From: Nitrospirae bacterium RBG_13_39_12
GTDB lineage: Bacteria; Nitrospirota; Thermodesulfovibrionia; Thermodesulfovibrionales; SM23-35
Reading direction: 5' to 3'
Assembly: GCA_001805125.1 (NCBI GenBank)
Contig: MHEF01000121.1
Coordinates: 1,841 to 47,235, forward strand
DNA: 45,395 nt
This document shows, piece after piece, positions 23,856 through 42,667 of the stretch. The notes under the pieces were generated by a model, which made no database searches, had not been told where the DNA came from, and was given only the letters and a program-made list of their open reading frames with translations. A program made the position numbers and the translations under genes. How positions within the stretch are numbered: the first letter of the stretch is position 1; the number at the start of each line of letters is the position of its first letter.

Positions 23856-24374
23856 TTATTTTGGATTTTCACCCAGATAGGCTTTAATAAAGATATCCAC
23901 TACCTCTTCCACACTGTCTCGGAGTTGGCTCAATATAATTTTCCCTATCGACCCCACTCCACCCGTTGACCAGGTCACTGCATACGTAATTTGTTCTGGA
24001 CCCCGTAGGAGAGAAACCTTTTGTATTAACATCACATCGATGGTATAGGGGTAAATCTCACTTTCAGTTTTTGCCAAATTCACATTAATATTGATGTAAA
24101 GGTATGGCTCTCCCGGCGTCTTTGAACATTCCTCTTTTGTTAATACCTTTATCCCTGCCATCCGAAGCTTAGATTCTGCCTCCATCTGTAGTTGATTTCT
24201 GACGAGCCCTTCCCTTTCAACCTCAGGTGGCAATTGTTCTACGAGTATTCCAACTCCTTTTAGCCCTCGAAGGGTAGCCCGATTGGATCTACCATTGACT
24301 GCAAATATGGGTAAATCCAATGTTAAGATCATGGCGACCACCATCAATAGTATTAACCATTTTTTAAAATTCAT
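23856..24374 (-). CDS. Hypothetical secreted protein
   Basis: 172-aa ORF with a clear signal peptide (MNFKKWLILLMVVAMILTLDLPIFA). I recognise no family. Confidence 0.5.
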   Translation of the reverse strand: MNFKKWLILLMVVAMILTLDLPIFAVNGRSNRATLRGLKGVGILVEQLPPEVEREGLVRNQLQMEAESKLRMAGIKVLTKEECSKTPGEPYLYININVNLAKTESEIYPYTIDVMLIQKVSLLRGPEQITYAVTWSTGGVGSIGKIILSQLRDSVEEVVDIFIKAYLGENPK

Positions 24375-25009: not shown

Positions 25010-26767
25010 ATGAAAGTTCTTCCTACTGAACAATGGGTTAAAAAAGCTGTAATCCTGGCAGGAGGGCAAAATACCCACTTAGCTCCTTTGACCAATTATT
25101 GCCCAACATGGATGTTTCCTGTCCTTAATAAACCTCTTATAGAGTATACCGTAGATTTTTTAAGAAAGAATGGTTTTGAGGAAATAATCATCTCCTTGCC
25201 TGAAGAAGCGAAAATCCCTGACTATTTAAAACAGAATAAGGTTCCAGGGATTAATATTAAATTCCATAAGGAAGATAGACCGAGAGGAACGGCTGGGGCA
25301 CTCAAGGATCTTGAGAATATTTTAGACAAAGAACCCTTCCTTGTTATTGAAGGCAATCTTTTTTCGGAAAGTATAAATTTAAATAAGTTTATTGAGTTTT
25401 ACAAAGAAACAGATTCAATTGCTACTGTTGGAGTATACCGAGAGAATGGTCGTAAGATTGAAGAGAATGTTACAATTAACAACGATAGCATGATTAACAG
25501 TTTCCATATCATTCACTCTTCAGTGGATAGGAGATCGCCATGGAGACCTTCTGGTATATATCTCTTCGATCCAATCATACTAAGATTTATTGACCGAAAG
25601 AATTATAAGGACATCAAGGAACAATTAATACCTGCCTTACAAAGAGAAGGTTTGAATGTCTCTGCGTGTGAAATTGAAGGGTTTCACTCCCTTCTCCGAA
25701 ACATGAACGATTACATCAATATCCATCGAGACCTTCTTTTGAAAAACGGCCATAAATATTTTGATGACAAGGAAGAGATAACAAAAGGGGTGTGGGTCGG
25801 CAAGAATGTGAAAATCTCTCCCAAAGCCTATTTATTAGGTCCGATTTTTATAGGCGATGGTTGTGAGATAAAAGATTGGGCACAAATCATCGGACCAACA
25901 GTCATTGGCAAAAAATGCCTGATATCAGAGGAGGTTGTAATTCGTGAGAGTATTCTATGGGGTGGCATATCTTTATCAAAAAAGTCGAGGATTGAATATT
26001 CAATCATAGGTGAGAGAGCCGATATTCCAGATAATTTTTATAGCAATAATATGATTTTGTTAAACGGATTATCCATTAGAGATGTTAGCCTGATCCCCTC
26101 AGACCAAAGTATAAAAGGAATTATTAACTTATCAGATGTTGTATCCACCATAGGGAGCAGACAGAAGATATATGAAATATCAAAGAGAATAATGGATATC
26201 ATTCTTTCTGCCACTGGCATTATTCTTCTCTTTCCTTTATTATTATTATTTGCTATTGTGATAAAGATCGATTCTCCAGGATCCGTATTTTATATTCAAA
26301 AGCGATGTGGCAGGGAGGGCAAATTGTTTGGTATGATAAAGTTTAGGACGATGGTTGCCAATGCCGAGAAACTCCAAAAAGAACTAATTGCTATTAAAGA
26401 GATTGATGGCCCGATGTTTAAGATATCAAATGACCCAAGAATCACAAGAGTTGGAAGGATATTACGAAATACCAGCCTCGATGAAATCCCTCAGCTATTC
26501 AATGTTCTTAAGGGAGAAATGAGTCTTGTCGGCCCAAGGCCATTGATAATGGATGAGATGCAATTCAGCCCAAGTTGGCGTGATACAAGGCTGAAAGTAA
26601 AACCGGGTATAACAGGATTATGGCAGATACAGGGTAGGAGTGAAGCCCCTTTCCACGACTGGATAAGATATGATGCAGGGTATGTCAAGAACCAGTCCCT
26701 CTGGATGGATATTAAAATACTGCTGAAGACAATAAAAGTTGTTCTAAAAAAATCAGGGGCGTATTGA
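25010..26767 (+). CDS. Fusion protein: sugar-1-phosphate nucleotidyltransferase-like domain plus left-handed beta-helix, fused to a monotopic phosphoglycosyl transferase (bacterial sugar transferase, PglC/WbaP-C type)
   Basis: The N-terminus has an NTP-transferase pattern (AVILAGGQNTHLAPLT ... NKPLIEY) followed by hexapeptide repeats (VGKNVKISPKAYLLGPIFIGDGCEIKDWAQIIGPTVIGKKC). The C-terminal 200 aa has a re-entrant helix (IILSATGIILLFPLLLLFAIVIKIDSPG), KFRTM, and the signature DEIPQLFNVLKGEMSLVGPRP. An AGGAG RBS lies upstream. Confidence 0.85.
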   Translation: MKVLPTEQWVKKAVILAGGQNTHLAPLTNYCPTWMFPVLNKPLIEYTVDFLRKNGFEEIIISLPEEAKIPDYLKQNKVPGINIKFHKEDRPRGTAGALKDLENILDKEPFLVIEGNLFSESINLNKFIEFYKETDSIATVGVYRENGRKIEENVTINNDSMINSFHIIHSSVDRRSPWRPSGIYLFDPIILRFIDRKNYKDIKEQLIPALQREGLNVSACEIEGFHSLLRNMNDYINIHRDLLLKNGHKYFDDKEEITKGVWVGKNVKISPKAYLLGPIFIGDGCEIKDWAQIIGPTVIGKKCLISEEVVIRESILWGGISLSKKSRIEYSIIGERADIPDNFYSNNMILLNGLSIRDVSLIPSDQSIKGIINLSDVVSTIGSRQKIYEISKRIMDIILSATGIILLFPLLLLFAIVIKIDSPGSVFYIQKRCGREGKLFGMIKFRTMVANAEKLQKELIAIKEIDGPMFKISNDPRITRVGRILRNTSLDEIPQLFNVLKGEMSLVGPRPLIMDEMQFSPSWRDTRLKVKPGITGLWQIQGRSEAPFHDWIRYDAGYVKNQSLWMDIKILLKTIKVVLKKSGAY

Positions 26768-27144: not shown

Positions 27145-27930
27145 ATGAACTTCAGAAACATAAATCCCTCATATATATATATCGGGATATTCGTCCTCAT
27201 TATCTCTATTTTATTAAATGGATGCTCAACCATTGGGACTACATCAAAAACGACCGAAGGGGGAGTCTCTCCGGCATCAGATGAGGAACCTAAGGAGGTT
27301 AAGCTCAATGAGTTTATCCTTGGCCCAGGAGATAGGGTTGAGATTATAGTCTATCGCCACGATGACTTAAAAAGAACCGCCCAAATAGATACTTCTGGAA
27401 AGATAGCCTACCCATTGGTTGGAGATATTCAGGCAGGAGGATCAAGTATTTTTCAATTGAGGGATAAAATTCGGGATGGGCTTTCAAAGTATATCATAAA
27501 TCCCGAGGTTACAATTGGTGTTGTATCTGTCCTGAGCCAGAAGGTTGGAGTCCTTGGTGAAGTCAACAATCCTGGGTTATTTACTCTTGATACTTCATTA
27601 ACTGCAGTAGAGGCTGTATCTAAGGCTGGAGGGTTTACCATAAATGCAAAACAGAAAAATGTTCTTCTTATCAGAGGTGGGTTGAAAAAACCTGAGTTAA
27701 TAACTCTTAATATAAATAACTTTTTTAGGGAACAGGATCTAACTCAAAACGTTTCTCTCAAAAATGGAGATATTATCTATGTGCCAGCAACATTTATAGA
27801 AAATGTTGCCAGATTCTTTGACCATTTGTCAAGGATCCTTGCACCTCTTACCTCGATAGAATCTGGAATCTATATAGGCCAACAAATAAAACAGGGAACC
27901 GGCGGAGGAGCATCTGTTCCAGCAAGATAA
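27145..27930 (+). CDS. Polysaccharide export outer-membrane lipoprotein (Wza/OPX family, short form)
   Basis: Lipobox LLNGC. Poly_export motif (FILGPGDRVEIIVY ... IDTSGKIAYPLVGDIQAGGSS) and an SLBB-like segment (VGVLGEVNNPGLFTL ... AVSKAGGFT). At 261 aa it lacks the long C-terminal helix of E. coli Wza. Confidence 0.85.
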   Translation: MNFRNINPSYIYIGIFVLIISILLNGCSTIGTTSKTTEGGVSPASDEEPKEVKLNEFILGPGDRVEIIVYRHDDLKRTAQIDTSGKIAYPLVGDIQAGGSSIFQLRDKIRDGLSKYIINPEVTIGVVSVLSQKVGVLGEVNNPGLFTLDTSLTAVEAVSKAGGFTINAKQKNVLLIRGGLKKPELITLNINNFFREQDLTQNVSLKNGDIIYVPATFIENVARFFDHLSRILAPLTSIESGIYIGQQIKQGTGGGASVPAR

Positions 27931-27961: not shown

Positions 27962-29464
27962 ATGACACTTGTTGAAATGCTTGAGAGAAATGAAAGAGAA
28001 TTCCCCAACAAGATAGCTATCATCTATCGTCATACCGGGATTACATATAGAGAACTGAATGTGACGGTTGACAAGATAGCCAATGCCTTAATAGCCATGG
28101 GGCTTAAAAAGGGGGATAGGGTTGGGCTGATGCTTCCTCGAGTTCCTGAACTTATTGTCAGTTTTCTTTCTATAGCCAAGGCTCAAGGGATTGTTGTACC
28201 CATCAATTTTGAACTTTTAGAAGAGAAAATTAGAACGATACTAATTAATATTTTACCCCGATATCTTATTATCCATGAAAACTTTTTAGACCTTGCCAAA
28301 AGATCACTTCCTTCAGGTCTAAAAATTCCTATCATAGCTGTTGGAGAAAGAATGAATGGAGAGGAATTTTTCTGGGAGGAGATGCTGAAAGGCAAGAGTT
28401 CGCCCCCCCCAGCTTTAGAAGTTAAAGAAAATGATGTGGTTTACCTCAACTATACCACTGGTTCGACAGGGAATCCGAAGGGGGCTATCACTACTCATTC
28501 ACATATATACTGGAATACAGTTGCCTCCATCGATGCCCTCAAAATGACTTCTAATGATGTTCATCTCTGTATGTTTGCCCCCTTTGCGCATCCGCACGAA
28601 ATATTTGCCAGACCCCTCTACCTGGGAGGAACAATGGTTTTGGTTGACAAGATATATCCGAAGTCTATTGCAGAAGCCATTGCTCATCATCAGGTGACCT
28701 GTATGATGGGACTTGCTCCAATGTACGAGAATCTGTTAGAGGTCCTTGAGCACAAAACTTACAATTTTGGTTCTTTAAGGATCCCAGAAAGTGGCGGTAT
28801 GTATACACGGCCAGAACTTATTGAGAGATTCAAAAGGAAGGTGGGTGTGCCAATTCTATCCGTATTGGGAACTACAGAAACAGCAGGTATTGCGATTGCC
28901 AATAGACCAGGTGAGACAATTATTTCTGGTTCTGCGGGAAAACCCTGTAAGTCCTATGAGGTAAAAATTGTTGATGAATATGATATGGAACTTCCAAAAA
29001 ACGAAATTGGAGAGATGATATTCAAAGGGCCTGGAGTGGTTCAGGGATACTATCAGGACCCTATCAATACTCAAAGTTGCTTCAAAAATGGTTGGTATTA
29101 CAGCGGAGATTTAGGAAGAAGAGACGAAGAAAATAACTTCTACTTTATTGAAAGAAAGTCAGGAATGATGAAGGTAGCAGGCCTAAAAGTCTACCCCTTG
29201 GAAATTGAATTGGCATTGCTGGAACATCCAGACATAAAAGAAGTCGCTATCATCTCTGTGAAGGACACACTTAGAGGGGAAATCCCCAAGGCCGTCATCG
29301 TTACAAAAAATGGGGTTGATTTAACCGAGAAAGAGGTTATTGCATTTTGTAGAGATAGATTGCCAAATTATATGGTGCCTCGCATTGTGGAGTTAAGAGA
29401 GGCCCTTCCAAAAATCGGGAGCGGAAAGATTAATAAAAAAGAATTACAGATGGAGAGAATATAA
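27962..29464 (+). CDS. Adenylate-forming enzyme (AMP-dependent synthetase/ligase; DltA/acyl-carrier-loading candidate)
   Basis: 500 aa. Core motifs: YTTGSTGNPKGA (A3), YYSGDLGRRDEENNFYFIERKSGMMKVAGLKVYPLEIE (A7/A8), and GSGKINKKEL (A10). A strong AAGGAGG RBS is present. Confidence 0.9.
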   Translation: MTLVEMLERNEREFPNKIAIIYRHTGITYRELNVTVDKIANALIAMGLKKGDRVGLMLPRVPELIVSFLSIAKAQGIVVPINFELLEEKIRTILINILPRYLIIHENFLDLAKRSLPSGLKIPIIAVGERMNGEEFFWEEMLKGKSSPPPALEVKENDVVYLNYTTGSTGNPKGAITTHSHIYWNTVASIDALKMTSNDVHLCMFAPFAHPHEIFARPLYLGGTMVLVDKIYPKSIAEAIAHHQVTCMMGLAPMYENLLEVLEHKTYNFGSLRIPESGGMYTRPELIERFKRKVGVPILSVLGTTETAGIAIANRPGETIISGSAGKPCKSYEVKIVDEYDMELPKNEIGEMIFKGPGVVQGYYQDPINTQSCFKNGWYYSGDLGRRDEENNFYFIERKSGMMKVAGLKVYPLEIELALLEHPDIKEVAIISVKDTLRGEIPKAVIVTKNGVDLTEKEVIAFCRDRLPNYMVPRIVELREALPKIGSGKINKKELQMERI

Positions 29465-29573
29465 GACATTGAATATTAATGCAGAATAGAAACCTAAAAA
29501 AGGTATCTCTTAAATGAAGATAAAGATGTAAAACAAAGAACCCTTGTATGATTGGTTTCTAATAATAGTAAAG

Positions 29574-29613
29574 AGCCCCGCTCTTATATAGCATACGATA
29601 TAGGAGCGGGGCT
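29574..29613 (+). terminator. Long GC-clamped hairpin downstream of the adenylating-enzyme gene
   Basis: AGCCCCGCTC (29574-29583) pairs with GAGCGGGGCT (29604-29613), with additional TATAT/ATATA pairing inside, and is followed by TTT. It lies 110 nt after the stop codon. Confidence 0.5.
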
Positions 29614-29649
29614 TTAAAACTTAAATGATTTAGAACCAAAATAGAGATT

Positions 29650-29719
29650 CAGAAACAAGTTCGGGATGACAACAATGGTAGTTCCATTCTTCTTGTCATG
29701 CTGAATTTGGTCCGGCATC
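29650..29719. repeat. Degenerate hairpin-repeat element (R3), related to the ATGCTGAAACAAGTTCAGCATGACA unit of R2
   Basis: CAGAAACAAGTTCGGGATGACAA (29650-29672) resembles 26948-26970. An inverted degenerate copy, TTGTCATGCTGAATTTGGTCCGGCAT, lies at 29693-29718. Confidence 0.45.
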
Positions 29720-29881
29720 TCAATTCCATTTTGGAAATTTTTATTTTAGAGTAATACTTCTGCCGTTTTGGTTGAATCATTCGTGGGAATCATCTTTTTG
29801 GCTTTGGCAACGGTGCTTTTAGTTGATATTCTTAATGATTAAGGATAGATTGAAAGATCATACCATAAAGGGGAATTAATC

Positions 29882-31924
29882 ATGGAGATTAGAAAATATT
29901 TTGAAATCATTTGGAAAAGGAAGTGGGTACTGATTTCCAGTTTTTGCATCATTGTTATTCTTGTGGTGATAGCAACTAACGTTTTAACTCCAATTTATGA
30001 GGCAAAAACCAAGGTCCTTATTGAACAATCAAGTGCTCTATCTGCCATTATGAGCAGCCTTAACGTGCCAACGAATCCTTTGCTTACTCCAAATCTTACT
30101 AATATTGCATATGGATACGATACAGAAATCACTCTTGTGAAGATAAGTCCTATTCTCCAAAAACTTATTGCTAACTTGAATCTAAAGGACAGGAAGGGAG
30201 AAACATTAAAACCAGAAAAGGTTCCATTTTCTATAACAAGACTTATTCTCCCCCAACCGTATATAGCTGTGGACCAATATCTAAGCTCAAATATTCTGGA
30301 AATTACAGGAGGTTCTACTAATCCCGCAGAGGCAGCCAAAATATCAAATGAATTAGCTAAATTGTATATAGACAATACTGTGGGTGAGGTAAAAAAAAGT
30401 TTCAGAGCTGCCCGTTTATTCATTGAAAATCAAATGGAGGATGTTAAGAAAAAATATTTTAAGTCTTTATTAGAAAGAAAAAATTTTATGACCGAAGAAT
30501 CAACGGTTGATTTAACAAGGGAGATTTCAGAGCTCCTTGATACTATAACAAAATTAAAGCAGGGTTATAATGACAATGAAGCTACTATAGCTCAGGCCGA
30601 AGAAAGCATCAGTTTGATAGAAAAACAGATTGCAGGGAAAGAGCATATTTCCAGTAATCTAATAAACACGATGGAGTCAAAATTAAATGATTTGTTAATA
30701 AATATCTCAGGCAAGAAGATTGAACTTACCGAAAAACATCCTGATATTGTAATACTTAATAAACAAATTGATACTATAAAAAAGCAATTGGAAGAAAAGA
30801 TGGAAATTGCCTTTAGCGAAAAGGCAGTCTCTATGGCCCCCGTTTACGAAGAATTAATAAGAAACCTGAAGGATGCATACATTAATAAAAAGACCGGAGA
30901 AATAAAAAGAGAATTATTAAAGCAATTTATTGATAAATATCAAGATGAACTAATGAAAATCCCTCCTAAAATCATGAGATCCTCCGCGATAGACGTTTCG
31001 CTCAATGCTAACCAAGATACCTATAAAAATCTTTTAACAAGCCTGAATCAGTTGGGTGTTGCCGAGTCTATCACCCTCGCCAATATCAGATTAGTTGAAC
31101 CTGCAGTAGAACCGGAAAGCGATGCACTCTATTTCCCCAAAAAGAATCTAAGCTATGTTCTCGGAATATTTCTTAGTTTATTCTGTGGGCTGTTTCTGAC
31201 TTTTTTTATAGAATATATAGACAATAAAATAAGAAGCCCTGAGGATATTAAACAATATGGATTTACGTTTTTAGGGTCTATTCCAAAGTTTAAATGGTTT
31301 AAAGGGAAACCTATGGTTTCAAAGTTAAATCCGAACGACCCGATCTATGAAGCCTATCGAAAGATACTTACCAATATTGATTTTGTAACGCTTGATAAGC
31401 CTTATAATAACCTATTAGTTAGCGGTATCAATCCAAAGGAAGGAAGTTCTACCACGGCAATGAACCTTGGAATTATACTTGCCAGTGAGGGGAAGAAAGT
31501 CCTTTTGGTGGATGCAGACCTCAGAAAACCTAACCTTCATCGATTGTTTGGGCTCCCCAATACGAAAGGTTTTATTGATTTATTATTTGGAAATGCAGAA
31601 ATGGAAAAAGTGATTCAGCCATCAAAGATTGATGGTTTAAGCATTATCCCAACAGGTCCAGCAACCCCGGATCCAGGCCTGCTTATCAAATCTAATAAAA
31701 TGCGAGAGGTTATTAGAGGCTTAAAAGGAAAATTTGACATCATTTTATTCCGTTCTGCTCCTCTTTTAATTAGGAACGATGCAGTTTTATTAATGAGAAA
31801 TTTAGATGCTATGATAATCGTTTCCAGGAATGGAGTCACTAACCATCCTTCTATTGCCAGAACTGACGAACTTTTAAAGAATTCAAAGATAACCCCGATA
31901 GGAATCATCCTAAACCGGGTTTAA
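29882..31924 (+). CDS. Polysaccharide co-polymerase (Wzz/PCP-2 type) with a C-terminal BY-kinase-like domain carrying degenerate Walker A and B motifs
   Basis: 680 aa. It has an N-terminal TM plus Wzz-like start (IWKRKWVLISSF), a long coiled-coil periplasmic region, and a second TM (YVLGIFLSLFCGLFLTFFI). The C-terminal domain has Walker A' LLVDADLRKP. Walker A reads GINPKEGSST rather than ..GEGKST, Walker B reads DIILFRSAP rather than D..iDTPP, and there is no C-terminal Tyr cluster. Confidence 0.8.
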   Translation: MEIRKYFEIIWKRKWVLISSFCIIVILVVIATNVLTPIYEAKTKVLIEQSSALSAIMSSLNVPTNPLLTPNLTNIAYGYDTEITLVKISPILQKLIANLNLKDRKGETLKPEKVPFSITRLILPQPYIAVDQYLSSNILEITGGSTNPAEAAKISNELAKLYIDNTVGEVKKSFRAARLFIENQMEDVKKKYFKSLLERKNFMTEESTVDLTREISELLDTITKLKQGYNDNEATIAQAEESISLIEKQIAGKEHISSNLINTMESKLNDLLINISGKKIELTEKHPDIVILNKQIDTIKKQLEEKMEIAFSEKAVSMAPVYEELIRNLKDAYINKKTGEIKRELLKQFIDKYQDELMKIPPKIMRSSAIDVSLNANQDTYKNLLTSLNQLGVAESITLANIRLVEPAVEPESDALYFPKKNLSYVLGIFLSLFCGLFLTFFIEYIDNKIRSPEDIKQYGFTFLGSIPKFKWFKGKPMVSKLNPNDPIYEAYRKILTNIDFVTLDKPYNNLLVSGINPKEGSSTTAMNLGIILASEGKKVLLVDADLRKPNLHRLFGLPNTKGFIDLLFGNAEMEKVIQPSKIDGLSIIPTGPATPDPGLLIKSNKMREVIRGLKGKFDIILFRSAPLLIRNDAVLLMRNLDAMIIVSRNGVTNHPSIARTDELLKNSKITPIGIILNRV

Positions 31925-32139
31925 ATATAGGGATTTTCCAAGATTGTATTGAAATTATCAGGATTTTGGGCAATTATTTCATTTTTTCGAAACCAGGTTG
32001 CCTTTTTTGTTTTTTATCAAGTTATTTTCCTGTCCAAAATACCATTTTTTAAAACCTAATTTTACCAAAAGTGGTATTAAATGATTAAATTACTAATCAG
32101 GCCATAATTATATAGACATTGAAAACTAAATCCCTCCTT

Positions 32140-32463
32140 CCTCCCTTTACCAAAGGGAGGAATCCCCCTCTTTGGCAAACTGATCGTTACCCATAAATGG
32201 GGAGGCTGGACACAAGGGGCTAAGTTATATGTTGCTAACATGACGAAATCATTATTATTCTTTAAGTTTGTCATTCCTGCGGAAGCAGGAATCCAGGTAT
32301 TTCCTATTGGTCATGGATTCCCGTTTTCACGGGAATGACATCTAAATACATTATGCTAAAGCCTCAATTGCCCCAGTTATGCCCCCCTCCTTGTGTCCAG
32401 CAGCCGACTTATGGGACACGTTCAGTTTGGCAAAGAGGGGTTACCTGCCTGCCGGTAGGCAGG
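32140..32463. repeat. Nested-hairpin REP/MITE-like element cluster (R4)
   Basis: Hairpins occur at 32140-32160 (CCTCCCTTT-acc-AAAGGGAGG), 32273-32292 (ATTCCTGC-ggaa-GCAGGAAT), 32317-32336 (ATTCCCG-ttttca-CGGGAAT) and 32444-32463. A long imperfect inverted repeat links 32165-32219 with 32383-32440. 32270-32294 is the exact reverse complement of 11770-11794. Confidence 0.75.
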
Positions 32464-32535
32464 GGGGAGATTTTCTAAAGATTATGTCTACTCGATTATG
32501 GACTCCTTAGTAAATTAACAGGGAGTAATAAAGGT

Positions 32536-33918
32536 ATGAAAGTTTTACTCGTCCAATCACATTTAGGCAGGATGAAGTTTTCCCCTCCTTTATTCCCAAT
32601 TGGGTTGTGTTATATCGCTACTGCTTTAACAAAGCATGATGTTAGGATATTAGATCTTAATATGTGGGAACTTTCTACCGCCTATGAAAAATTAAAAGAA
32701 GAAATTGTGAATTTTAGCCCAAATATTGTTGGAATTTCCATTCGGGATATTGATACAACAAATAGATCAGATATTTTTTACAATTTTAAGACTGTTAAAC
32801 CAACTGCCCAGTTAATAAAAAAAATAAATCCCAACATAAAACTTTTGGTTGGAGGCTCTGGTTTCTCCATATTTGCTCAAAATATTATGGAGCGAATTCC
32901 AGAATTTAATTTTGGTATTCATTTAGAGGGAGAAGAATCTATCCCAGAGCTTTTAGACCATATTGACTTCCCAGAAACTGTTAAGGGTATTTTTATCAGG
33001 AATAATGATTCGACTTATTTTACTGGTTTTAGAGCACTACCTGATTTTAATAATTTACCCATTCCTAAAAGGAACGAGAGTTTAATAAATATTAAACCAT
33101 ACATAGGAGCGATGGATAACAATATAGGGATTCAAAGCAAGCGCGGGTGTATATTAAATTGTGCTTACTGTAGTTATCCCTTTTTAAGTGGTAAGCAATT
33201 GCGCCTTCGTTCACCCGAAATCGTTGTAGATGAAATAGAATACCTTATCAGTTTAGGGGTTAAAAGGTTTACTTTTGTAGATAATATTTTTAATGTTCCA
33301 GTATCACATTCCAAAGAAATTTGTGAGGAGATAATCAAACGAGGGTTAGATGTCGAGTGGAGTGCATGGTTTGAGATAAAACATACAACTGAAGAACTGA
33401 TGCTTCTTGCTAAAAAAGCTGGGTGTAAACATTTTGGTTTTTCACCTGATGGTGCTACCAATAAAACACTTTCTTTTCTCAAAAAAGGCATTACTGAGAA
33501 GGACATCGAAGAAAATTTAAGAATGGTCAGAAGAATAGATGGGATAAAAGCCGGCTATAATTTTTTTTTAATGCTACCGGGAATGAATTTACGAGATTTA
33601 ATAAAAACTTTGATTCTATATTTCAAATTGCCTATTCTCCTGTTTGGCAAAGGAGGAGGAGCTTTATTGGGATGGATACGTATAGAACCTCACACAAAGA
33701 TACATGAGTTCGCTGTTAAAGAGGGCATTCTGAGTCAGGATACCGATTTACTACCAGAAGATGAAAAGGAACTGATAAAACTTTTTTATACTAACCCTAA
33801 ATATCGATATATCGATTTATTTCTTTTATTTTTAGTTAAATTAATGGAAAACATTGTAAAACCATTTGCAAAGTTTGTGATAAAGGGTTTTCCCAGAAGC
33901 AAAGGTAACAGCATATAA
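32536..33918 (+). CDS. B12-binding-domain radical SAM protein (class B)
   Basis: The N-terminus is Rossmann-like and cobalamin-domain-like (MKVLLVQSH...FPIGLCYIATAL...IVGISI). It is followed by the radical SAM cluster motif CILNCAYCSYP (CxxxCxxC). Confidence 0.85.
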   Translation: MKVLLVQSHLGRMKFSPPLFPIGLCYIATALTKHDVRILDLNMWELSTAYEKLKEEIVNFSPNIVGISIRDIDTTNRSDIFYNFKTVKPTAQLIKKINPNIKLLVGGSGFSIFAQNIMERIPEFNFGIHLEGEESIPELLDHIDFPETVKGIFIRNNDSTYFTGFRALPDFNNLPIPKRNESLINIKPYIGAMDNNIGIQSKRGCILNCAYCSYPFLSGKQLRLRSPEIVVDEIEYLISLGVKRFTFVDNIFNVPVSHSKEICEEIIKRGLDVEWSAWFEIKHTTEELMLLAKKAGCKHFGFSPDGATNKTLSFLKKGITEKDIEENLRMVRRIDGIKAGYNFFLMLPGMNLRDLIKTLILYFKLPILLFGKGGGALLGWIRIEPHTKIHEFAVKEGILSQDTDLLPEDEKELIKLFYTNPKYRYIDLFLLFLVKLMENIVKPFAKFVIKGFPRSKGNSI

Positions 33919-33990
33919 TTTTCAACTATTGAATTAAACAAGAACAGAAAAAAAGAACATGAAATCATGATTTAATATAATGACAATCTG

Positions 33991-34986
33991 ATGGTAAATA
34001 ATAAAAATATTTTGGGGGATATTTTTCTTTGGTTTGTTTGGTTCCCCTTTCGTATCTTTATACATCACCTACCTATAAAATTGGTAAATTTAATGGGGCA
34101 ATTAGGCGGCCTTGCTCTGTATGCATTCTCAAGAAAAAAGAGAGCGATAATGACTGAGGAACTTTCTTTTTTATTTAGCCATTCATCATCTTTAAACCAA
34201 AAAGAAATTAAAAAAATGGTCTATCGGGGCCTTCAGATATTTAGTAAAAGACAGATGGAGAATCTCTTTTGGGGGAAAATGAGTCCCCAGCTTATCAATC
34301 GCATGATTACAATCGAGGGAATTGCGCATCTTGAAAAAGCCTTGCAAAATAAAGATGGTGCTATTCTTCTCACTGCCCATTTTGGCTCTCAACAGATTGC
34401 CCCACTCGTGTTAGGTTTTAAAGGATATAAGGTTAATATAATGGCTGGTCCCCCTTTGATAGAAAAACAGACACCAATCCATGGGAAGATATTCAAAAGC
34501 CGCTCGAAAGAATCTAAGAGATTACCAATAAACTTTATTACACTTGATAGGTCTAAGAGACATTTATTTAGAGCACTAAGAAATAATGAGATACTATACA
34601 TTGGGTTTGATGGAAGGGAGGGAGTTAATTGGATTCCAGTAGATTTCTTCAATCATAAAGCCTTTTTTTCACCTGGTCCTATAAAACTGTCACTTAAAAC
34701 AAGAGCACCTATTTTGCCTACATTTATAGTAAGACAGAAGGACGATACACATCGGTTAATTATCGAGCCACCTTTTGAGCTTGAATTAGCAGAGGATGAA
34801 AAAAAAACACTTACCTTGAACACAGCGAAATTTGCTAAAATATTCGAGGAGTATATCTCAAAATATCCGTGTCACTATGCGATGACATTAATGCGTATGA
34901 AAGAATTGATGCAGGAAGGTGCGCTTGAATCAAGTCTTTTTCAAGGACATAAAAGAGAAGTATTAGTGAAAAATATGTTGAAATGA
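33991..34986 (+). CDS. LpxL/HtrB-like (lipid A biosynthesis-type) acyltransferase family protein
   Basis: N-terminal membrane anchor, then the family pattern: AILLTAHFGSQQIAP (compare vil.tpHfGnwEl), LRALRNNEILYIGFDGREG, FFNHKAFFSPGPIKLSLKTRAPILP. The dyad position H-x4-E reads H-F-G-S-Q-Q. Confidence 0.65.
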   Translation: MVNNKNILGDIFLWFVWFPFRIFIHHLPIKLVNLMGQLGGLALYAFSRKKRAIMTEELSFLFSHSSSLNQKEIKKMVYRGLQIFSKRQMENLFWGKMSPQLINRMITIEGIAHLEKALQNKDGAILLTAHFGSQQIAPLVLGFKGYKVNIMAGPPLIEKQTPIHGKIFKSRSKESKRLPINFITLDRSKRHLFRALRNNEILYIGFDGREGVNWIPVDFFNHKAFFSPGPIKLSLKTRAPILPTFIVRQKDDTHRLIIEPPFELELAEDEKKTLTLNTAKFAKIFEEYISKYPCHYAMTLMRMKELMQEGALESSLFQGHKREVLVKNMLK

Positions 34987-35169
34987 TGACATCTATTATG
35001 TCATATAAGTAGAAGCACTTCCTAAGCACTTATTATGAAGGAAAGGAATAAGAGTATTTTTTATAAAGTGCGCAAGAAATTGCTTTTATTCGAGAACCAT
35101 TTGTAGATAGGGCCACTGAATATTAACACGTAAAAGTCTGATAAAAACTCAATTTAATAGAAAATAGTC

Positions 35170-36357
35170 ATGGCAAAGATTTTGTATATTATAATATCCT
35201 TGTCCCTAGGCGTTTTGGTTTATTGGTTTCTTCCTAAAAGAAGTCGCAGCATATTTCTGCTTGCGGCGAGTCTTTTTTTTATGTCCTTCTTTAGTATAAA
35301 ATATACACTTTATTTTCTGCTTATTGCATTATCTATTTATTTTACAGGTATTTTTATACAGAAAGAGGACAAAAATAAAATACTTTTTCTCAAGCTTGCA
35401 TTATTCTTTCTAATTGGAAATCTCTGCGTTTTTAAGTATATTGATTCATTACTCAATGCTATATTTAGGATTGGTTTTCAATTTCCAGTGATACCAGAGA
35501 CAACATTTTCGAAGATAGCTATCCCTATGGGGATGTCGTATATTATTTTCAGGTTAATACATTATGTTGTAGAGATTTACAGAAAAACCCTGCCTACCCA
35601 TACATTCTGGGACCTTGCATTATTTGTATTCTTTTTCCCCACGTTTTTGGCGGGACCAGTTGATAGATTTCAAAGATTCCAACCACAGATTGCAGAGCAA
35701 AATTCTTTTGATTCTTCAGATATGAATTACGGTTTGTTTCGCATCGTCTCAGGAATGATTAAGAAATTTATTATAGCAGACCACCTGAAACCATTAGTCA
35801 TATCTGTACTTTCATCACCACAGGAATCTTTATGGGCGATTGTAGTGCTTGCAATCTATGGCTTGGCAATACAGATTTATATGGATTTTTCTGGTTATAC
35901 AGACATGGCTGTTGGTGTCGCAAGATTATTTGGATACAAGATAATGGAAAACTTTAACTATCCATATTTTAAAAAGAACATTGCCCTGTTTTGGCGAAAC
36001 TGGCATATTTCTGTTTACAGTTTTATAAGGGACTATTTTTTCTTCCCATTCTTCGGTTATCGCGCTTCCCGAAAAAAGATTTACATTGGTATATTTATAA
36101 CTATGATTGTATTTATGTTATGGCATGAGGCCAGCCTACCTTTTCTATTTTTGGGAATTTATCATGGTTCTGGTTTAGTGTTATGGCAAGGTTTCCAGGA
36201 ATTAAAAGGGAAACATGCAAGCATTAAAAAAATGGTAGATAATAAGTATTTGGATCCCCTTTTAAATTTTTTAACATTTAGTTTTGTGAGTTTCAGTTTT
36301 ATCTTTTTCAGTTTTGACATGAATGCCATAAAAGCTATTTTGCTTAGAATATTCTAA
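35170..36357 (+). CDS. MBOAT-family membrane-bound O-acyltransferase (DltB/AlgI-like)
   Basis: 395-aa polytopic protein. MBOAT hallmarks: SYIIFRLIHYVVE, FWRNWHISVYSFIRDYFFFPF, and MLWHEASLPFLFLGIYHG (conserved His). Confidence 0.9.
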   Translation: MAKILYIIISLSLGVLVYWFLPKRSRSIFLLAASLFFMSFFSIKYTLYFLLIALSIYFTGIFIQKEDKNKILFLKLALFFLIGNLCVFKYIDSLLNAIFRIGFQFPVIPETTFSKIAIPMGMSYIIFRLIHYVVEIYRKTLPTHTFWDLALFVFFFPTFLAGPVDRFQRFQPQIAEQNSFDSSDMNYGLFRIVSGMIKKFIIADHLKPLVISVLSSPQESLWAIVVLAIYGLAIQIYMDFSGYTDMAVGVARLFGYKIMENFNYPYFKKNIALFWRNWHISVYSFIRDYFFFPFFGYRASRKKIYIGIFITMIVFMLWHEASLPFLFLGIYHGSGLVLWQGFQELKGKHASIKKMVDNKYLDPLLNFLTFSFVSFSFIFFSFDMNAIKAILLRIF

Positions 36358-36420
36358 TACCTACTTTCTTTAGGAAGCAAACATTACCAATTTAGTTATG
36401 AATAAATATGGGGATGATAC

Positions 36421-36660
36421 ATGAAAGAACAAATTAAAAAATTTATAATTAATAATTTTATGTTTGGTGAAGGTATTCTTAAAGATGATGATCCCTTATT
36501 CGAATCGGGCATAATAGATTCGCTCGGTTTTATTAAATTGCTTGCCTTTATAGAAGAGAAGTTTGAGGTTTGTATAGATATGGGCGAAGTTACCATAGAA
36601 AAATTTAATACTATCAATGAAATGATGAAAACCTTAGAAAATAAATTACCTAAGGTTTAG
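36421..36660 (+). CDS. Acyl/aminoacyl carrier protein (DltC/ACP-like)
   Basis: 79 aa with the phosphopantetheine attachment motif GIIDSLGFIKLLAFIEEKF (D-S-L). It lies directly after the MBOAT gene. Confidence 0.85.
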   Translation: MKEQIKKFIINNFMFGEGILKDDDPLFESGIIDSLGFIKLLAFIEEKFEVCIDMGEVTIEKFNTINEMMKTLENKLPKV

Positions 36661-36737
36661 TAATTTCTACTCTAAAAAGATAATGTTGAGGATCATTATA
36701 GAGAAAATAGTTAGAAAAATACTAAAAAGGAGTACAT

Positions 36738-36857
36738 ATGAAAAATAACAAAAAAACATTTTTTACGGTTATCTTAATCCTTATTTTAATTTTAATTGTT
36801 TACGTATTGTATCTTCTGGGTTACAAGCTGGAAGGTTTCGTATATGAAAAATTTTAA
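36738..36857 (+). CDS. 39-aa single-pass membrane microprotein with C-terminal F-V-Y-E-K-F (DltX-like acyl-shuttle candidate)
   Basis: Below the ORF-track size cut-off and translated by hand: MKNNKKTFFTVILILILILIVYVLYLLGYKLEGFVYEKF*. AAGGAG lies at 36727-36732, 5 nt before ATG 36738. The stop is at 36855-36857, overlapping the next gene's ATG (36844) by 14 nt. Confidence 0.6.
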   Translation: MKNNKKTFFTVILILILILIVYVLYLLGYKLEGFVYEKF

Positions 36858-37875
36858 GCACCTTTTTATGCCTTCATATATTGTTAGACATAGCGGGTTT
36901 AGGGCAGTATATATTGCATTCATTATTATTTTTATATTTATTTTCTCATTGGAACTTACTGATAGGATTCTTTTTAGACCAAAAAGTATTTTTGCCAGAA
37001 GTGTACGCGATTTTGAAAAACAAAAAAGTCAAATACAAATTCTATTCCTTGGTCAATCAGATGTGCAATTTGACATTATCCCTGATGAGTTTAATTACAG
37101 GGCATTTAATTTCTCTGGTAGCGGAGAAACTTTTTTAGAAACATATTATAAATTAAAACACTATATACGTGATATGCATGAGGTAAAAATAGTTGTATTG
37201 GCAGTTACCTTCTCGACTTTTTCATCTTATCGTGCAGACGAAATACAATGGGAATATTTTGTATATAGGTATATAACATATAGTGAGATCTTGGAGTTAT
37301 ACAAGCTGAAGGGACCGATGGTAATAAGAGAAAAGCTTTTGAGCTTTTGTCCTATTGTTAGAAGAATTGAGATGATTGATTTTCTTCGTAATATGAAAAA
37401 GTTACTAACAAATCAGCCTATTGATAAAACAGAAATGTATGATGGGTTTGTAAAGAATGTTGGAAGCAATGTTACTAAGGAAGGAGCGTTAGAAAGGGTA
37501 GAAAGACAATTTAAGGGACAAAATTTATTAGATAATAATTTTTTATTATATTTCGAAAAAATATTGAAATTGTGCGTGGACAATAATATTAAAGTATTTT
37601 TGGTAACATTACCGGTAAGTAATTATTATTTTGAACATTCAAAAAAATACATAAACAAAGATTTACTTTATAAAAAGGTTATAAATAATCCAGTATATGG
37701 CAAATACGTACATAAATATTTGGATCTGTTAGAAATTTATAAAAATGATAATGACCTTTTTTTAAATCAGGACCATTTAAATGATGAAGGTGCCCGGAAA
37801 GTATCAAGGCTTATAGCATCTGAATGGTCTAAGACGATCGAAGATATTATGAATGCTCAATATTTCCTAAAATGA
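36844..37875 (+). CDS. Membrane-anchored DltD/SGNH-like acyl-transfer protein (DUF1574-like)
   Basis: The track start 36796 is a TTG inside the microprotein ORF, so ATG 36844 (MKNFKHLF) is preferred. It has an N-terminal TM (AVYIAFIIIFIFIFSL), a block-I-like ILFLGQSDV (candidate Ser nucleophile), and a block-V-like NQDHLNDEGA (D-x-x-H) near the C-terminus. Confidence 0.5.
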   Translation: MKNFKHLFMPSYIVRHSGFRAVYIAFIIIFIFIFSLELTDRILFRPKSIFARSVRDFEKQKSQIQILFLGQSDVQFDIIPDEFNYRAFNFSGSGETFLETYYKLKHYIRDMHEVKIVVLAVTFSTFSSYRADEIQWEYFVYRYITYSEILELYKLKGPMVIREKLLSFCPIVRRIEMIDFLRNMKKLLTNQPIDKTEMYDGFVKNVGSNVTKEGALERVERQFKGQNLLDNNFLLYFEKILKLCVDNNIKVFLVTLPVSNYYFEHSKKYINKDLLYKKVINNPVYGKYVHKYLDLLEIYKNDNDLFLNQDHLNDEGARKVSRLIASEWSKTIEDIMNAQYFLK

Positions 37876-37900: not shown

Positions 37901-38965
37901 ATGAAATATGAAATTATAAGTTTGCAACCACTTAGAGTTGAGAATACGAGTTATAATGCAGCCCTGAGTTATTTGGGAAGAGAAAATTTAATAAAGATTA
38001 AATTTATAGAATTTTCATTACTCAGACAAGTTTGGCTGATTTGGCGTGGTACAACAAGAAAATATCCCCTCTCAAGGATCATTAAAAATATTTATGCTAT
38101 AGTGAAATTGTTTTTGTCTAAAAATAAAACTCTCATAATAGGAGCGGCGCCATACAGCATAGTTGTATTTTTGCTCAACAAGCTAAAATCAAGGAACAGA
38201 TGTATTTTTTACACATCATGGCCGTACTGGGATGAAAAGAGATATCCCGAGAGGGTATTTATATCTTCTCAAATAAAAGCATGGAAAAAGTTTTTAGATG
38301 GCATTATATCCGCCGGTGTAACTACGGCTTCCTGTGAAGGCATAGCAAAATATGGAGCAAAAAGTTTTTTCATGCCACATACTATTGATACGAACTTATT
38401 CAGGCCACTTGTCACGAAACCTACCTCAGATAAAGTCAAAGTATTGTATGTTGGAAAACTATTAAAGATAAAGGGATTACCAAGAATTGTAAATTTAGTC
38501 AAAAACTATAAGTGGCAAAATATAGAATTCTGTATTGCCGGTGGGGGCCCATATGAAGAGGAAATTATAAAAATGGAAAAAGGAAACTATCCGGTCAGAT
38601 ATCTGGGTTATATCGAAAACAAAAGGGATTTGGTATCTATTTACCAAGGCTCTGACATTCTAATCTTACCGTCGTTCCAAGAAAATTTTGGAATTGTCCT
38701 GATAGAAGCAATGGCATGCCAGCTTCCAGTGATAGCAACTGACTGTGCCGGCCCGAGGGAGATTATAGAGGATGGTGTGAATGGTATGCTTATTCCACAG
38801 GAAAGCGAGGAGGCATTAAGAGACGCCGTTCTGCAATTGGCTAATTCACCGGAATTACGGGATAAATATGGTGTAAATGGCAGAAAGAAAGTAGAAAAAA
38901 TGTATGATGTAAAGGAAGCTGCAAGGCGGTGGCTGGAAATAATAGAAATGGTTCATACTACATAA
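37901..38965 (+). CDS. GT4-family (GT-B fold) glycosyltransferase
   Basis: C-terminal domain pattern ILILPSFQENFGIVLIEAMACQLPVIATDCAGPREIIEDGVNGMLI (E-x7-E region). Confidence 0.9.
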   Translation: MKYEIISLQPLRVENTSYNAALSYLGRENLIKIKFIEFSLLRQVWLIWRGTTRKYPLSRIIKNIYAIVKLFLSKNKTLIIGAAPYSIVVFLLNKLKSRNRCIFYTSWPYWDEKRYPERVFISSQIKAWKKFLDGIISAGVTTASCEGIAKYGAKSFFMPHTIDTNLFRPLVTKPTSDKVKVLYVGKLLKIKGLPRIVNLVKNYKWQNIEFCIAGGGPYEEEIIKMEKGNYPVRYLGYIENKRDLVSIYQGSDILILPSFQENFGIVLIEAMACQLPVIATDCAGPREIIEDGVNGMLIPQESEEALRDAVLQLANSPELRDKYGVNGRKKVEKMYDVKEAARRWLEIIEMVHTT

Positions 38966-38984
38966 AACAAGGAGTCTCAAATAT

Positions 38985-39956
38985 ATGAAGGGGATTATAG
39001 CAAGATTCAAAGCAAATCTATTTTTTGCATTGCCTGTTAATAGATATATAGTCAACATCCTGAAACATAGGCTTTTCAGTGGTCTTTATATTCCTCAAGT
39101 GATACAGCTTGAAGTTACTAATTACTGCAATGCAAAATGCATTTTATGCCCATATACAAAAATTACAAGACCAAAAGGTTATATGCCATGGCACATTTTT
39201 GAGAAGATAATTAACGAATGCTCGCAATTTGAAAAAGGCAGAGGATTAAAATTAATCCTGCATAAAGATGGAGAACCATTGATGGACCCCTTGCTTTTTA
39301 AAAGAATTGATTATATCAAAGAAAAGCTGAAAAAGAGTACAGTCCATTTCAACACTAATGCAATGCTTTTGAATGAAGATAAAGCTATCAATATACTAAA
39401 TTCTCCCCTGGATTCCATTACATTCAGCGTTGACGGCACTTCCAAAGAGACTTATGAAAAGATTAGAGAGGGCCTGAAATATGATGCTGTTGTAAAAAAT
39501 ATAAATAATTTTTTTAATAAGAAAAAAGAATTAAATAAGAAAATTCATATAACTATGCAGATGGTATTGAATAAAGACAATATGCATGAAATTGGCAAAT
39601 ATAAGAAATTGTGGGGCGATAAGGCAGACAGGATTTTTATTAAAAATGCGCATAATTTTTTAGTGCAGAAAACATCATTCCATGGCGGAGTGCTGGGTGA
39701 AAAACAATTAAGCAGGTGTATGCAGACATTTAATCTTATGTTGTTCTACTGGAATGGTGATGTTGCTTTATGCTGTTGGGATTATGATAATTTAGTAGGC
39801 CTTGGGAATATAGAGAAAGACTCATTGTTGGGAATTTATAATAACGATAAGTTTAATAAGGTAAGGAATGCCATGAAAAATAAGAACTGCAAAGATATTG
39901 TACCCTGCAATATTTGCTCTCAGATTTACGGCAAAGATGGTAGACAATGGGCGTAA
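38985..39956 (+). CDS. Radical SAM protein with C-terminal SPASM/twitch-like Cys-rich domain
   Basis: Cluster motif TNYCNAKCILCPY (CxxxCxxC). The C-terminal stretch is CMQTF...WNGDVALCCWDYDNLVGLGNI...CKDIVPCNICSQ. An AAGGAG RBS is present. Confidence 0.85.
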   Translation: MKGIIARFKANLFFALPVNRYIVNILKHRLFSGLYIPQVIQLEVTNYCNAKCILCPYTKITRPKGYMPWHIFEKIINECSQFEKGRGLKLILHKDGEPLMDPLLFKRIDYIKEKLKKSTVHFNTNAMLLNEDKAINILNSPLDSITFSVDGTSKETYEKIREGLKYDAVVKNINNFFNKKKELNKKIHITMQMVLNKDNMHEIGKYKKLWGDKADRIFIKNAHNFLVQKTSFHGGVLGEKQLSRCMQTFNLMLFYWNGDVALCCWDYDNLVGLGNIEKDSLLGIYNNDKFNKVRNAMKNKNCKDIVPCNICSQIYGKDGRQWA

Positions 39957-39983
39957 GGTAAGTAAAAAGAAGGAGGGGAAGAT

Positions 39984-42666: not shown

Positions 42667-42667
42667 G

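Follow-up and report, generated by a model that had tools for sequence, protein, structure and literature searches.

A cassette of Dlt architecture in an exopolysaccharide locus

Bases 35170-37875 of the window (the whole 45,395-nucleotide stretch of contig MHEF01000121.1 from Nitrospirae bacterium RBG_13_39_12) form a four-gene cassette of Dlt architecture that encodes an MBOAT protein, a carrier protein, a microprotein, and an SGNH protein. By analogy with characterized systems, we consider it probable that these genes, which lie in the variable region of an exopolysaccharide (EPS) locus, make up a carrier-dependent acyl-shuttle cassette of the DltB/DltC/DltX/DltD type. The cassette is a Dlt system by architecture and not by family membership. 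An earlier note on this DNA had read the same four genes, along with an adenylase gene upstream, as a complete but split Dlt-like pathway of five parts. All five open reading frames (ORFs) are present on the forward strand at precisely the coordinates given there, and the four Dlt-type parts within the cassette were borne out by an MBOAT whose only named relatives are DltB, a DltC/PltL-like carrier, a microprotein family that reaches Pfam DltX, and the SGNH protein. The cassette comprises the following features.

35170-36357, forward strand: short DltB-like MBOAT, 395 amino acids (Pfam PF03062, 1.6e-15)
36421-36660, forward strand: stand-alone carrier protein (type II peptidyl carrier protein or DltC-like), 79 amino acids (PP-binding, 1e-6)
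36738-36857, forward strand: DltX-like membrane microprotein, 39 amino acids, with a basic N-terminus, one transmembrane helix, and a C-terminal FVYEKF
36844-37875, forward strand: N-terminally anchored SGNH-fold protein, DltD/DUF1574-like, 343 amino acids (AlphaFold2 model, Foldseek, homolog profiles)

In the Dlt system, DltB moves D-alanine from DltC to the invariant Tyr of the DltX motif FXYXXF, and from DltX it moves on to the DltD catalytic Ser (PMC12148441). Other MBOAT/SGNH pathways have FXYXXF fused to a longer MBOAT and use neither a carrier protein nor a DltX-like microprotein (PMC12148441). The current division is between Dlt, the only system with a carrier and a separate microprotein, which places D-alanine on teichoic acids, and the acetyl-CoA systems with a fused motif. 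Like DltXABCD of Firmicutes, which also occurs in Dickeya and Pectobacterium, the window cassette combines a short, motif-free MBOAT, a stand-alone carrier, a separate FxYxxF microprotein of about 40 amino acids, and an anchored SGNH protein with a DltD-like fold, all encoded by overlapping, co-directional genes. Unlike DltXABCD, it has no DltA, its proteins fall below the Dlt cutoffs or go unmatched, and it resides in a Wzx/Wzy EPS locus of a Gram-negative-type Nitrospirae host without teichoic acids. O-acetylation systems such as PatA/PatB, AlgI/AlgJ/AlgX, and the WssH type share with the window the pairing of an MBOAT with a periplasmic SGNH transferase, the acyl-Tyr motif FxYxxF, and an association with envelope or secreted polysaccharide, but they use acetyl-CoA and a fused motif and lack the carrier and microprotein, both of which the window has.

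The sole NCBIfam match of the MBOAT was DltB (TIGR04091; 168 bits, below the cutoff of 375), and its sole sequence relatives in the PDB were the DltB entries 6bug and 8jem (E 2.6e-27). His319 of the MBOAT (LWHE) aligns with DltB His336, His279 (WRNWH) is also conserved, and the C-terminus (...AILLRIF) contains no FxYxxF. In the carrier, the phosphopantetheine site is Ser34 in IIDSLG. The carrier scored 38.7 bits against NCBIfam DltC (cutoff 68), and its best PDB matches were PltL (5.5e-7), DltC (1.1e-6), and PigG (5e-5), ahead of the acyl carrier proteins (ACPs) of fatty acid synthase (FAS). PltL, DltC, and PigG are stand-alone aminoacyl carriers, unlike FAS ACPs.

The microprotein ends in F34-V-Y36-E-K-F39, and its gene overlaps the ATG of the 343-residue SGNH protein gene by 14 nucleotides. 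The ORFs of about 40 amino acids at the same position in related loci (27 of 27) all end in F[VI]Y[EDQ][EK]F, with F34, Y36, and F39 invariant, and all 27 have a basic N-terminus and one hydrophobic helix. Seven of the 11 distinct microprotein sequences matched Pfam DltX (best 4e-5), and phmmer connected the window microprotein with members that do so; on these similarities we classify it as DltX-like. Read from the sequence, both the microprotein and the SGNH protein have a basic N-terminus, which is compatible with an N-in, C-out topology.

The predicted fold of the SGNH protein resembles DltD

Direct Pfam and NCBIfam scans of the SGNH protein and of the microprotein came back empty, so we turned to profiles of homologs and to a model of the structure. 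The earlier note had offered the presence of an SGNH/DltD fold in the 343-residue protein as a test of its proposal, and the fold was recovered: the AlphaFold2 model, built with 27 homologs, had a mean predicted local distance difference test (pLDDT) score of 91.8 and a predicted template modeling (pTM) score of 0.87, and consisted of a long N-terminal helix followed by an alpha/beta domain. When this model was compared to the PDB with Foldseek, DltD structures took the best 12 places (E 3e-7 to 1e-4), and generic SGNH esterases and PatB came next.

A database search with the protein returned 53 homolog clusters, nearly all metagenomic, of which the distant ones carried DUF1574 or SGNH domains, and an exhaustive profile search retrieved 5,987 representatives at E<=1e-3, with a tight subfamily of about 12 representatives at 50% identity, or about 46 clusters at 90% identity. 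Among 109 relatives, 50 matched DUF1574 (best 5e-13), 22 matched Pfam DltD (best 2.5e-8), and 17 matched an AT3-fused SGNH domain. A profile of these 109 sequences, searched against PDB sequences, found the OatA SGNH domain at 5e-4 and DltD (6o93) at 0.048 over block V, while an earlier 27-sequence profile had reached only E ~1 (OatA and platelet-activating factor acetylhydrolase). By these profile matches, the family of the 343-residue protein appears to bridge DUF1574 and DltD. DUF1574 (PF07611) is listed as an SGNH family for which neither activity nor structure is known (PMC9487903); its model matches neither the window protein nor the tight subfamily around it, and the DUF1574-matching relatives that we examined pair with carrier-free long MBOATs.

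As for the catalytic blocks that the earlier note had described, GQSD was confirmed as block I (G70-Q-S72-D73), but DxxH was not: block V reads N308-Q-D310-H311, and D-x-x-H occurs nowhere in the protein. G70 is invariant, and S72 and H311 are kept in at least 90% of the 109 relatives. We propose Ser72 (GQSD) as the putative nucleophile and His311 (NQDHLN) as the putative base. Ser-His dyads are known in SGNH enzymes of carbohydrate esterase family 2 (CE2) (PMC9487903).

Several of the results on these two proteins weigh against a shuttle of the Dlt type. The 343-residue protein had no Pfam or NCBIfam match even at E=10, DUF1574 and DltD included; among the profile searches suggested by the earlier note, those with AMP-binding, PP-binding, and MBOAT models succeeded in the window, and those with DltD and DUF1574 failed for this protein. 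Asn replaces the canonical block V Asp three residues before the His, which is a further difference from DltXABCD, and Asp at this position was seen in some relatives only. The Foldseek TM-scores to DltD were modest (0.35-0.44). Likewise, the window microprotein had no Pfam or NCBIfam match even at E=10, Pfam DltX included.

Related cassettes carry different loading enzymes

To place the cassette among its relatives, we compared 49 loci (designated by L numbers) and mapped the window proteins onto them. The tight DltD-like subfamily was present in 3 of 185,579 species-representative genomes, namely a Hainich groundwater bin and two metagenome-assembled genomes (MAGs), one from Nitrospirae and one from Syntrophaceae. 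The set of short MBOAT, carrier, ORF of about 40 amino acids, and DltD-like homolog recurs in about 30 independent loci; given this recurrence and the motif kept in all 27 ORFs, the arrangement reflects more than chance. Wherever the DltD-like protein was at least 40% identical and the contig was long enough, the locus had a short MBOAT (395-432 amino acids), a carrier, and a microprotein, and in all loci with relatives of this identity the carrier adjoins the MBOAT. Relatives at or below about 30% identity that had a visible neighbor were nearly all paired with a long MBOAT (464-495 amino acids) ending in FxYxxF (FIYFQF or similar), as in the PatA/PatB, AlgI/AlgJ/AlgX, and WssH-type systems, and those so paired had no carrier and no microprotein. 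Judged from the sequences, the carrier-plus-microprotein design and the fused-motif design would be two branches of one SGNH family, a pattern that mirrors the Dlt versus PatA/AlgI dichotomy (PMC12148441). The cassettes fall into four architectures, in which D denotes a DltD-like protein and FAAL a fatty acyl-AMP ligase.

Type I, EPS-embedded (window, L001, L005, L006, L008, L030): no adenylase within the cassette
Type II (L002, L003, L007, L009, L010, L014, L015, L017, L021): MBOAT, carrier, D1, (methyltransferase or B12-binding radical SAM enzyme), FAAL, microprotein, D2
Type III (L011-L013): MBOAT, carrier, acyl-CoA-dehydrogenase-fold protein, adenylase, microprotein, D, microprotein, D
Type IV (L020, L024, L025, L029): MBOAT, carrier, microprotein, D, FAAL

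The adenylases of types II and IV are FAAL-like (about 295 bits to fatty acyl-AMP ligase), whereas that of type III scores above the cutoff of TIGR01733, the model for amino-acid adenylation (379 bits, cutoff 317), and is accompanied by a PigA/RedW-like dehydrogenase (453 and 391 bits, below the equivalog cutoffs). These matches suggest that in type III a prolyl or pyrrolyl (pyrrole-2-carboxyl) group is formed on the carrier and exported to an envelope polymer. The pyrrole modules PltF/PltL/PltE and PigI/PigG/PigA resemble these sister cassettes in having an adenylation domain (A domain) and a PigA/RedW-like prolyl-carrier dehydrogenase beside the carrier, and they resemble the window itself through PltL and PigG, which are among the best solved relatives of its carrier. 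The window differs in having neither the A domain nor the dehydrogenase, and the known pathways pass their product to a polyketide synthase and not to an MBOAT. Among cassettes outside EPS loci with enough flank, 17 of 17 carry their own adenylase (FAAL or A domain); EPS-embedded cassettes carry none.

These comparisons also bear on the reading of the window genes as a true dlt operon for D-alanylation that was taken up from Firmicutes, as in Dickeya and Pectobacterium. We rejected a genuine Dlt operon and regard it as very improbable: no DltA is present, the only adenylase in the window lacks the Asp that binds an alpha-amino group and does not have DltA among its top matches, none of the four cassette proteins reaches an NCBIfam Dlt cutoff, each falling short of it or going unmatched, and in relatives the same core is combined with FAALs or with a proline-type A domain and a PigA-like dehydrogenase. 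Since the relatives use FAAL or proline-type loaders, the acyl group of the window cassette, as judged by sequence comparison, would not be D-alanine.

Some further features of the sister cassettes were apparent. The type III cassette with two pairs of microprotein and DltD-like genes spans 1413-8007 of L011 and is also found in L012 and L013. Compact cassettes (8459-14048 of L002; also L007, L009, L014, L015, L017, and L021) have a FAAL-type adenylase and two DltD-like paralogs, with the microprotein preceding the second paralog only; some have a class-I methyltransferase or a B12-binding radical SAM gene between the first DltD-like paralog and the FAAL.

The upstream adenylase and the conserved 5' block

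The GC (guanine plus cytosine) content of the window is about 0.47 over the first 23 kb and drops to 0.29-0.40 in a co-directional gene array that begins at 25010. This array is a Wzx/Wzy-type EPS locus, and the EPS context that the earlier note had recognized holds, with Pfam matches for Bac_transf, OPX, Wzc, and glycosyltransferase family 4 (GT4) proteins. Its first part contains the adenylase that had been assigned to the Dlt-like pathway. The gene order was also as described: the adenylase lies between the OPX and Wzc genes, about 5.7 kb upstream of the MBOAT, and a B12-binding radical SAM gene and an LpxL-like gene immediately precede the MBOAT.

25010-26767, forward strand: NTP-transferase/Bac_transf initiating enzyme (Pfam Bac_transf, 1e-69)
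27145-27930, forward strand: OPX exporter (Pfam Poly_export, 1e-20)
27962-29464, forward strand: ANL adenylate-forming enzyme, 500 amino acids (AMP-binding, 2e-77, plus AMP-binding_C)
29465-29881, no strand: 418-nucleotide non-coding gap without an ORF, at the site occupied in most relatives by the adenylase-paired zinc-dependent alcohol dehydrogenase (Zn-ADH)
29882-31924, forward strand: Wzc-type co-polymerase/tyrosine kinase (Pfam Wzz/GNVR/AAA_31; NCBIfam EPS tyrosine autokinase TIGR01007, 135.6 bits, above the cutoff)

The claim that 27962-29464 is a dedicated DltA equivalent that loads the cassette carrier and has been displaced 5.7 kb upstream is one that we find possible but somewhat doubtful. 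It is the sole adenylase in the window, it is encoded in the same locus and on the same strand, and it accompanies the cassette in five loci, namely the window, L001, L005, L006, and L008. The distribution of adenylases described above, in which non-EPS cassettes bring their own and EPS-embedded ones have none, fits replacement by a locus enzyme and is the only positive argument for this adenylase as the loader.

Acyl-CoA ligase families, none of which reached its cutoff, made up most of the best 25 NCBIfam matches of the enzyme; DltA and the amino-acid-adenylation models were absent from those 25. Its best PDB relatives were feruloyl- and fatty-acyl-CoA synthetases, and DltA was not among the best 60 PDB matches. 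In A domains of the nonribosomal peptide synthetase type, an Asp binds the alpha-amino group. Where the type III A domain has HFDLS, the window adenylase has AHPHE, in which this Asp is missing, and by sequence the enzyme is not DltA-like. The earlier note had left the activated substrate as a carboxylic or amino acid; the missing Asp and the acyl-CoA-ligase-like best matches narrow this choice, in that an alpha-amino acid would be an improbable acyl group should the locus adenylase be the loader.

The distribution of the adenylase is also much wider than that of the cassette. Its homologs form more than 120 clusters at 63-84% identity (769 at E<=1e-60), which greatly outnumber the DltD-like subfamily; their sources are Nitrospirota, Deltaproteobacteria, Thermodesulfovibrio, Omnitrophica, Schekmanbacteria, and Planctomycetota. 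In all seven sampled loci (L041-L047) the adenylase gene accompanies sugar transferase and Wzc genes, usually along with an OPX gene and usually with a gene for an IolM-like Zn-ADH, with a different order in L042. A check of the DNA of these seven loci revealed no MBOAT or carrier, no DltD-like ORF, and no ORF with a terminal FxYxxF in any of them. In relatives, the conserved block of sugar transferase, OPX, adenylase, ADH, and Wzc genes, which spans several phyla, pairs the adenylase with a Zn-ADH and not with a carrier. The window adenylase groups with those of the cassette-free loci L045 and L046 (79-81% identity) in a neighbor-joining tree, and not with those of the cassette-bearing L001, L005, and L008 (68-69%); a single clade of adenylases from cassette-bearing loci was rejected, as the tree showed no clustering by cassette presence. 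The A4 segment FAPFAHPHEIF is the same in 10 of the 11 loci compared, of both kinds, and differs at its last two residues in L042.

Two other candidate ties between the enzyme and the cassette were considered and rejected. The compact-locus adenylase is not an ortholog of the window enzyme (23% identical over a fragment, and FAAL-like), and the L011-type adenylase, at 27% identity and with an amino-acid A domain, is not a closer relative.

In summary for this gene, the adenylase is a general, unspecialized, cassette-independent gene of such EPS loci and may not belong to the cassette. The description of a complete but split pathway with the adenylase as its dedicated fifth part is weakly supported: since the adenylase, the LpxL-like gene, and the B12-binding radical SAM gene all occur in related loci independently of the cassette, the five-part reading over-reads proximity, and the adenylase is mis-assigned when it is judged by its nearness. 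Co-option of the locus adenylase to charge the carrier, as opposed to its dedication to that task, is again conceivable from the sequences yet falls short of being the expected outcome; otherwise the loader would be encoded elsewhere.

Comparison of the window with L045 and L046 gave identities of 61-79% for the sugar transferase, OPX, and adenylase, and of 39% for Wzc and 32% for the LpxL-like protein. Such values would fit a capsule-like organization with a conserved 5' block and a swappable downstream region. The 5' block (NTP-transferase/Bac_transf, OPX, ANL adenylase, Zn-ADH, Wzc; no carrier nearby) is seen across Nitrospirota, Deltaproteobacteria, Schekmanbacteria, and others, with 64-84% identity among the adenylases of these lineages. 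The adenylase and Zn-ADH are a separate and very widespread pair of EPS loci. At the position of the window gap, an ADH is present in L001, L008, L041-L044, and L047, fragments remain in L046, and none is found in L045; the IolM-like Zn-ADH of L001 matches NF041097 with 537 bits, above the cutoff. From this pattern, the Zn-ADH gene appears to have been lost in the window and to be in the course of loss in this sub-lineage. The gap 29465-29881 holds a GC-rich inverted repeat (AGAGCCCCGCTC...GAGCGGGGCTTT).

A proposed acyl relay and its acceptor

By analogy with the Dlt and PatAB mechanisms, we propose the following relay for the cassette. A loader would place an acyl thioester on the Ser34-phosphopantetheine of the 79-residue carrier, and the acyl-carrier would then dock at the cytoplasmic face of the short MBOAT. 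His319 of the MBOAT would carry this group across the membrane and onto Tyr36 in the microprotein motif FVYEKF on the periplasmic side, from which it could be handed to Ser72 of the membrane-anchored SGNH protein. The SGNH protein would finally esterify a hydroxyl of a periplasmic polymer, most probably the polysaccharide of the locus before its export through OPX.

The locus polysaccharide is the likeliest acceptor, given that the cassette sits within the EPS variable region and has diverged along with it. In each of six loci (window, L001, L005, L006, L008, and L030) the cassette lies between the Wzc/B12-binding radical SAM genes and, contig permitting, GT4 genes. Between the window and L001/L008, cassette proteins are 55-72% identical and their neighbors in the variable region 56-74%, so the two have diverged in step. 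This acceptor is inferred from context, and compact cassettes such as those of L002 and L003 are not in EPS loci, which counts against it: they sit among restriction-modification, CheR, and extracytoplasmic function (ECF) sigma factor genes. If position in the EPS locus were incidental, the window cassette could acylate another target, such as lipopolysaccharide or lipid A, another glycolipid, peptidoglycan, or a secreted protein. That Dlt, PatAB, and AlgIJFX show the platform serving very different acceptors agrees with this possibility, and the two DltD-like paralogs of compact loci hint at more than one acceptor. With the cassette embedded among EPS genes in six loci and its divergence matching theirs, however, we consider another target unlikely.

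Returning to the carrier-dependent acyl shuttle, a broader proposal is that the window cassette belongs to a mobile family of carrier-dependent MBOAT-DltX-SGNH systems for acyl export, with interchangeable loading modules, in Gram-negative-type anaerobes. We put this forward tentatively, as a little less than evenly balanced. Its hosts would be Nitrospirota, Syntrophaceae, and unbinned groundwater and sediment bacteria; its loading modules would be FAALs for fatty acids, an A domain with a PigA-like dehydrogenase for prolyl or pyrrolyl groups, or a co-opted locus adenylase; and the acyl groups that it attaches to extracytoplasmic polymers would be neither acetate nor D-alanine. If this were true, the EPS encoded in the window would be esterified with an unusual carboxylic acid, possibly tailored by a B12-binding radical SAM enzyme.

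Against the current division of these systems, the cassette represents the Dlt design outside D-alanylation, in uncultivated Gram-negative-type bacteria, and with a FAAL, a proline-type A domain, or no loader of its own. If functional, it would indicate that the acyl-tyrosine relay could bring acyl groups of larger size or more diverse chemistry through the inner membrane to secreted polymers. In the literature searched, we found no description of carrier-dependent MBOAT systems with FAAL or proline-type loaders, or in EPS loci, though a 2023 bioinformatic survey may mention such systems. The cassette systems are compact enough for direct testing.

Neighboring genes and annotation

The genes on either side of the cassette are as follows.

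32536-33918, forward strand: B12-binding radical SAM enzyme (Pfam B12-binding and Radical_SAM)
33991-34986, forward strand: LpxL-family (Lip_A_acyltrans) acyltransferase (PF03279, 3e-28)
37901-41645, forward strand: downstream variable-region genes for a GT4 glycosyltransferase, a radical SAM/SPASM enzyme, and a GH5-like protein (Pfam)

The LpxL-like gene and the B12-binding radical SAM gene are not specific to the cassette, as both recur in cassette-free loci. The LpxL-like gene is present in five of the seven (L041, L043-L045, and L047) and lies on the other side of the cassette in L001 and L005; it is a backbone gene of the locus, outside the cassette. The B12-binding radical SAM enzyme of the window matched BzaD-like (270 bits) and lipid-biosynthesis B12-binding radical SAM (207 bits) models in NCBIfam, both below cutoff. 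Its relatives occur in five of the seven cassette-free loci, L043 and L045 among them, and inside some cassettes (L006-L008 and L015). The enzyme possibly tailors the acyl group or a sugar and is not a core part of the cassette. Related loci such as L045 have up to five consecutive B12-binding radical SAM genes, which is unusual among polysaccharide loci.

Lipid A glycylation in Vibrio cholerae is carried out by a trio of adenylase, carrier, and LpxL-family transferase, AlmE, AlmF, and AlmG. The same three kinds of gene are found in the window locus, all within 9 kb, and in the window as in L001/L005 the cassette has the LpxL-like gene directly beside it. A comparable cytoplasmic route would have the adenylase load the carrier and the LpxL-family protein (33991-34986) modify a lipid or lipid-linked sugar on the inner face of the membrane, leaving the MBOAT branch secondary. 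This route seems quite improbable. Adenylase and LpxL-like genes often co-occur in cassette-free loci with no carrier gene nearby, which argues that the LpxL-like enzyme is independent of the cassette carrier; compact cassettes have no LpxL-like gene; and the carrier gene is always found together with those for the MBOAT, microprotein, and SGNH protein.

Downstream of the cassette, the genes of 37901-41645 keep their order in L001 and L005 at 59-74% identity and, on this basis, appear to be co-inherited with the cassette. The radical SAM/SPASM gene (38985-39956) directly follows the GT4 gene, and its product is 74% identical in L001/L005.

The carrier, microprotein, and DltD-like genes (36421-37875) have the lowest GC content of the locus, 0.23-0.29, compared to 0.33-0.41 in their neighbors. 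In GenBank, RBG_13_39_12 has OGW37831 (adenylase), OGW37835 (MBOAT), and OGW37837 (343-residue protein) all annotated as "hypothetical protein". The microprotein gene is absent from this annotation, where the locus tags 04055, 04060, and 04065 (A2Y97_04060 to 04065) leave no place for it, although gene callers did call the ORF of about 40 amino acids in L001-L003. A scan of 24.3-38.2 kb for promoters and terminators gave the same counts as the shuffled expectation. Between relA/spoT and the start of the EPS locus, a 172-amino-acid ORF on the reverse strand (23856-24374) has a hydrophobic N-terminal segment and no Pfam match even at E=10.

Finally, a PAPS-reductase-like gene (3'-phosphoadenosine-5'-phosphosulfate; PF01507, 1e-13) is followed at once by a gene of the sulfatase/alkaline-phosphatase family (PF00884, 6e-34) at 42064-44044 of the window, and L044 has a similar pair of PAPS_reduct and Phosphodiest genes. 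The two genes may form a module that modifies the EPS with sulfo or phospho groups.

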